Assembly (NCBI RefSeq): GCF_003334785.1
Contig: NZ_QOWV01000020.1
Direction: 5' to 3' (one strand)
DNA: 61,363 nt
DNA from: Escherichia coli
GTDB lineage: Bacteria > Pseudomonadota > Gammaproteobacteria > Enterobacterales > Enterobacteriaceae
The notes beneath the pieces are model-generated. The model saw only the letters and a program-made list of their open reading frames with translations, was not told the DNA's origin and did not search any database. Position numbers and translations under genes: made by a program. Position 1 is the stretch's first letter; each line of letters opens with the position of its first letter. Positions 55,778 to 55,966 of the stretch are shown in pieces.

Positions 55778-55812
55778 AACAGTTTCCTCCAGAGTTAATG
55801 TATATGATGTGT

Positions 55813-55831
55813 AATGTTATATTGTAACATA
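55813..55831. promoter_or_regulatory. Putative Zur box upstream of zinT
   Basis: AATGTTATATTGTAACATA, an AT-rich inverted repeat (TGTTA...TAACA), lies 35-55 bp upstream of the zinT start. Confidence 0.5.
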
Positions 55832-55966
55832 TAACAAAATGCAACAACTCTTAGGAGACAAGAGAATAGTTCTCTCAGGTGTGCTTATCTATCTTATTGA
55901 AATAAAATAAATTATGTCGATGATTTGAGGTTGATGACAAACGAAACATAACTTGATGTGATCTGC

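Follow-up and report, generated by a model that had tools for sequence, protein, structure and literature searches.

The AT-rich pseudo-palindrome at about 55810-55832 of the window, by which we mean the whole 61,363-nucleotide stretch of Escherichia coli DNA that was analysed, is with a probability of roughly 95% the Zur operator of the zinT promoter, at which Zur would repress the gene by promoter occlusion when zinc suffices. The element is the already characterised zinT Zur operator and thus not new; the only mildly new points are lineage-specific polymorphisms in its flanks, including one at position 55834. That a Zur operator represses zinT had been proposed in a first-pass annotation, and the proposal gains support from consensus matches, a weight matrix built with zinT left out, identity with the K-12 operator and published data on Zur. 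For the present allele the basis is a matching sequence that is found nowhere else in the window and is identical to the K-12 operator, a box retained across Enterobacterales, and a zur gene that the species possesses; Zur binding, its stoichiometry, the fold repression and the transcription start are taken from the literature, and we infer that the window strain would behave like K-12. The features to which the argument refers are as follows:

55127-55777, minus strand: zinT (yodA), the regulated gene, 216 aa with a TTG start, from the list of open reading frames
55786-55790, minus strand: Shine-Dalgarno sequence GGAGG, 8 nt before the zinT TTG, read from the sequence
55810-55829, unstranded: core Zur box, TGTTACAATATAACATTACA in gene orientation, an exact TGWNAYRWTATAWYRTNWCA match and identical to K-12
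55818-55821: central TATA of the Zur box, within the 55810-55829 core
55812-55832, unstranded: 21-nt block, TAATGTTATATTGTAACATAT on the plus strand, which matches the proteobacterial consensus and holds the 19-mer at 55813-55831
55834, unstranded: upstream-flank base that varies between strains, A on the plus strand here and G in K-12

The window derives from the E. coli chromosome: a 1.1-kb piece around the Zur site is present in 5418 of 5426 complete genomes of the species, and is 100% identical to many of them. The identity of the zinT reading frame is also given by the RefSeq annotation of a 100% identical strain, and the product is matched by the NCBIfam equivalog NF007639 ('metal-binding protein ZinT') with 432.8 bits, the cut-off being 300. 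The local order mtfA, tRNA-Ser(CGA), zinT, msrQ, msrP, hiuH is that of K-12. The gene for the regulator, zur, lies outside the window, but none of the 5426 complete E. coli genomes lacks it; strain 300709 matches the window at 100% over the zinT region, and its zur is likewise 100% identical to the K-12 counterpart.

Two further features of the neighbourhood were observed. Just 222 nt (54905-55126) separate the serU-side flank from the end of zinT, against 995 nt including yodB in K-12, which means that yodB, encoding a putative cytochrome b561, is absent here, as it is in the 100% identical strain 300709. On the other side, a GC-rich REP-type palindromic element lies at 55970-56035, between msrQ and the zinT promoter, for which Rfam gives a match to naRNA4 that stays below threshold (35.8 bits, the gathering score being 59.5). 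The Rfam scan recovered no RNA element in the zinT 5' region, that sub-threshold REP-type match farther upstream being its only return, and no intrinsic terminator was detected after msrQ.

The 19-mer on which the first-pass annotation was centred, AATGTTATATTGTAACATA, occurs once in the window, at 55813-55831. With zinT on the minus strand and starting at the TTG, this places it 36-54 nt upstream of the start codon, in agreement with the 35-55 bp claimed for it. The claim that it forms an inverted repeat holds in part: the repeat is present, but it is imperfect, with 7 of 9 arm pairs around a centre at 55822. Since the window contains 103 inverted repeats of 9-1-9 form and the same 7/9 quality, the symmetry by itself does not go beyond chance. 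A perfect 8-nt inverted repeat, TGTTATAT/ATATAACA (55815-22/55829-36), was the sole perfect one returned by the repeat finder. We rejected it as the functional symmetry: one of its arms needs the base at 55834, which differs between E. coli strains, so that the repeat is not a conserved symmetry.

It is the specific sequence rather than the symmetry that carries the Zur call. The proteobacterial consensus AAATGTTATANTATAACATTT (21 nt, at most 3 mismatches allowed) has one match on both strands of the 61,363 nt, against 0.01 expected by chance from shuffled sequences, and this match, with 3 mismatches, is the zinT site. The classical 23-nt pseudo-palindrome GAAATGTTATA-N-TATAACATTTC likewise finds its best match at 55811-55833 with 4 mismatches, the next site in the window having 7; the validated operators show 2 (znuA/C), 3 (pliG), 4 (K-12 zinT) and 6 (ykgM) mismatches to the same consensus. 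The structure-derived E. coli pattern TGWNAYRWTATAWYRTNWCA, taken from Gilston et al. (PMC4219657), has a single exact match in the window, at 55810-55829; the pattern was partly built on K-12 zinT, so that this match is not independent of the K-12 operator. A weight matrix was built, with zinT left out, from the K-12 znuA/C, ykgM and pliG operators, three sites being a small training set. The first-pass annotation had named a Zur matrix scan as the check on its claim, and far from scoring poorly, the zinT site came first among about 61,000 positions with 18.7 bits, which falls among the leave-one-out scores of the training operators (16.5 to 23.0). A second register 5 nt away reached 14.4 bits and the next unrelated site 8.6, and the maximum over 30 simulated windows was 17.8 bits, attained in one of them.

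The different descriptions of the site can be brought into register with one another. The two-dimer skeleton RNNNYRNNRYNNYRNNNY matches at 55811-55828, giving an overall dyad at 55819.5, and the classical 23-nt consensus, like the palindrome of the 19-mer, centres on 55822. On the published two-dimer model the dyads of the two Zur dimers would fall at 55817 and 55822; the centre of the 19-mer palindrome would thus be the dyad of one Zur dimer, 2.5 nt off the dyad of the whole site. In the znu operator, too, the two descriptions lie 2.5 nt apart, as worked out by hand from the sequences.

A link to experiment is provided by K-12. The msrQ-zinT spacer is 96% identical to that of K-12, and the stretch from the box to the start codon is fully identical. 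The K-12 zinT promoter thus shares with the window the locus, the gene and the 20-nt core; it differs at the upstream-flank base 55834 (in gene orientation TGTTATA here against TGCTATA in K-12) and by several substitutions farther upstream in the spacer. On the K-12 promoter, Zur protects about 30 bp, and two dimers bind cooperatively with an apparent Kd of 0.053e-18 M2 in electrophoretic mobility shift assays, among the tightest of four operators (PMC4219657; the sequence of the zinT probe oligonucleotide is absent from its main text). The same study gives a 984-fold difference in zinT mRNA between the wild type and a zur deletion with the K-12 operator, and describes each Zur dimer as reading RNNNYxxxRNNNY, two dimers placed 5 nt apart yielding the skeleton given above (PMC4219657). 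In O157:H7, deletion of zur leads to constitutive accumulation of ZinT, whatever the zinc (PMC3053223).

These data bear on the alternative that the repeat is simply the AT-rich core promoter of zinT, a chance palindrome to which no repressor binds in this strain. The 103 repeats of equal quality in the window and the several -10-like hexamers inside the box are as such a reading would have it. However, for the identical sequence in K-12, Zur binding in vitro and a derepression of about 1000-fold without zur are documented (PMC4219657), the core is invariant within E. coli, and the half-sites are conserved across genera despite unrelated flanks; we accordingly regard a chance palindrome as very improbable.

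We consider it equally far-fetched that the box is the operator of another metalloregulator, such as a Fur box. Fur and Zur are paralogues, both with AT-rich operators, and Puskarova 2002 reportedly connected fur and soxS with the induction of yodA by cadmium. A Fur box (GATAATGATAATCATTATC) is indeed comparable in being an AT-rich pseudo-palindrome at which one or more dimers of a Fur-family protein overlap a promoter. Yet the best match to GATAATGATAATCATTATC in 55778-55900 has 8 mismatches out of 19, on which ground a Fur box was rejected, and the zinT site contains the Zur-specific central TATA, which is said to set Zur apart from Fur recognition (PMC4219657). A SoxS/MarA-type box near 55866 was also considered and dropped, the match being poor (as judged by eye only) and its GCAC motif missing in K-12.

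Among the known Zur targets, a close parallel to the zinT operator is the znuA/znuCB operator, which was crystallised with two Zur dimers on 31 bp (4MTD): it shares the TGWNAYRWTATAWYRTNWCA pattern, the RNNNY skeleton and the central TATA, and its position of -22 to -3 is similar to the -23 to -4 of zinT (PMC5916954). Unlike the zinT operator it serves two divergent promoters, and it binds Zur about 150-fold more weakly, with about 7-fold repression in vivo (PMC4219657). The ykgMO (L31p/L36p) and pliG operators belong to the same regulator and motif family and formed part of the independent training set, but differ from zinT in having one mismatch each to the 20-mer pattern; at pliG a single dimer can bind, and repression is weak (PMC4219657).

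Beyond E. coli, a Zur box scoring above 12 bits within 250 nt upstream was found at 82% of 78 Enterobacterales zinT loci, against 1 of 234 control stretches. Both Zur half-sites are kept across genera with unrelated flanks; the core is unchanged in Escherichia sp., and E. albertii has one change, at an N position. Of 52 distinct orthologous promoters, 33 carry a -35-like TTG at a distance of 21-23 nt upstream from the T[AG]TAAC half-site. Inspection of the alignment by eye reveals, in Salmonella, Atlantibacter and Citrobacter, a terminator-like GC-rich hairpin and then a T-rich run directly upstream of the box; because the hairpin ends right before the box, the only room for a promoter in these three genera is over the box.

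Some loci depart from this pattern. In Morganella psychrotolerans (loci L055, at 1280-2103, and L066) the Zur box precedes zinT by about 200-220 nt, with a short gene in between, a YkgO-type L36 paralogue, which ends 3 nt before zinT; from its sequence, this looks like a ykgO-zinT operon under one Zur box. No Zur box above 3 bits was found within 250 nt upstream of nine zinT homologue loci in Providencia, Morganella and Proteus, nor at four zinT loci of Serratia sp. DD3. Such box-less homologues may be promoter-distal genes of operons or otherwise regulated. The four Serratia sp. DD3 loci have identical flanks and are found on four contigs, and are possibly an assembly duplication.

The placement of the promoter relative to the box was approached from the literature and from the sequence. 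According to Velasco et al. (PMC5916954, a secondary statement), the Zur box of zinT occupies -23 to -4 relative to the transcription start. A mapped zinT start was sought in the literature and not found, the supplements of Mendoza-Vargas 2009 containing no zinT/yodA entry. Transfer of the published placement, together with crude sigma-70 scoring, yields the following candidate elements:

about 55806, minus strand: predicted transcription start, from the PMC5916954 placement transferred via the identical 20-mer
55819-55814, minus strand: candidate -10 TAACAT, inside the box, from crude sigma-70 scoring and the published start
55821-55816, minus strand: candidate -10 TATAAC, inside the box, on the same two grounds
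55829-55821, minus strand: candidate extended -10 TGtTACAAT, inside the box, again from the scoring and the published start
55844-55839, minus strand: candidate -35 TTGCAT, just upstream of the box, from crude scoring
55847-55842, minus strand: candidate -35 TTGTTG, just upstream of the box, from crude scoring

With a start at about 55806, the zinT 5'UTR would be about 29 nt long. The crude scoring leaves the assignment of the -10 and -35 elements over the box ambiguous. The built-in promoter scan reports no promoter over the box and upstream sites only; it misses the box because none of the -10 candidates there combines a good -35 with the final T.

Crude scoring also ranks an upstream promoter-like site slightly above the box promoter. 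This site, TTGTCA-18-CATAAT at 55911-55940 on the minus strand, faces zinT from about 100 nt upstream of the box. Transcripts starting there, if the site is active, must read through the Zur-bound operator, and Zur might then act partly or mainly as a roadblock that stops them at the box, about 75-95 nt downstream. The site has a score of 10/12 in the promoter scan besides its first place in the crude scoring. Moreover, RNA polymerase holoenzyme binds the yedZ-zinT spacer, where the homologous K-12 sequence, TTGTCA-18-AATAAT, was predicted to be the 'constitutive promoter' (Shimada et al. 2014, PMC3946193). These hexamers, however, were chosen in silico within a SELEX-chip peak of low resolution and come with no mapped start (PMC3946193). 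The upstream site is not conserved beyond Escherichia, other genera have the terminator-like hairpin directly upstream of the box, and the -35-like TTG is kept at a fixed distance from the box. Together with the -23 to -4 position reported for the box (PMC5916954), this makes a roadblock unlikely. Repression by promoter occlusion is most likely, given the comparative support for a promoter overlapping the box.

Under promoter occlusion, the operator would work as follows. The Zur target is understood to be an AT-rich pseudo-palindrome of about 20-30 bp, in which the monomers would read RNNNY elements and the central TATA would form part of the recognition. With enough zinc in the cytoplasm, two Zur dimers loaded with the metal are expected to bind cooperatively on opposite faces of the DNA. 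The box is predicted to span the promoter spacer and the -10 region (-23 to -4), so that bound Zur would exclude RNA polymerase and keep zinT silent. Upon a drop in zinc, Zur would lose its sensing zinc and leave the DNA, allowing zinT to be transcribed, and periplasmic ZinT would then help the ZnuABC transporter to capture zinc.

Within E. coli, the core and its surroundings differ in how much they vary. The exact 61-mer of the window around the site (55790-55850) is present in 738 genomes; in the others it has 95-99% identity (3233 genomes), 90-95% identity (1411) or less (34). We sampled 11 alleles across these identity classes, from 100% down to about 92%. The 21-nt sequence ATATGTTACAATATAACATTA (55832-55812) is invariant in all 11 and both its flanks vary; the GGAGG Shine-Dalgarno sequence of zinT is also unchanged in all 11. 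Inside the 20-nt core, a change is seen in a single sampled allele, that of RM8082, in which a C to T substitution at position 19 of the 20-mer (homologous to 55811 of the window) gives TGTTACAATATAACATTATA and breaks the published pattern at one position.

The flank at 55832-55836 occurs in five variants, TGTTATA here and TGCTATA, TGTCATA, TGCCATA or TTTCATA elsewhere. Other alleles differ by insertion or deletion: a 1-nt insertion allele (strain PAR type) is found in about 1327 genomes, and in strains 2015C-4498 and PEC240 a 5-nt deletion removes the TTGCA of a candidate -35. The A at 55834 completes the perfect 8-nt repeat; with it, a second matrix register scores 17.8 instead of 12.4 bits, this register being shifted from the core by 5 nt in the upstream direction of the gene, where window coordinates are higher. 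Judged from the sequence, this base could extend or strengthen Zur occupancy. The broader idea that flank variants tune Zur affinity or promoter strength, such that the zinc level at which zinT comes on would differ between lineages, is at present unlikely.

As a discovery the site carries little weight, zinT being a textbook member of the small Zur regulon of E. coli, whose operator has already been the subject of prediction, in vitro binding and quantification and has served to define the Zur recognition code. The site is of use instead as a positive control, in which a reading from sequence alone located an experimentally validated operator. For the biology of the species, a 21-nt core that does not vary, set between flanks that do, constitutes a natural operator footprint, which could guide studies of regulatory tuning between lineages.
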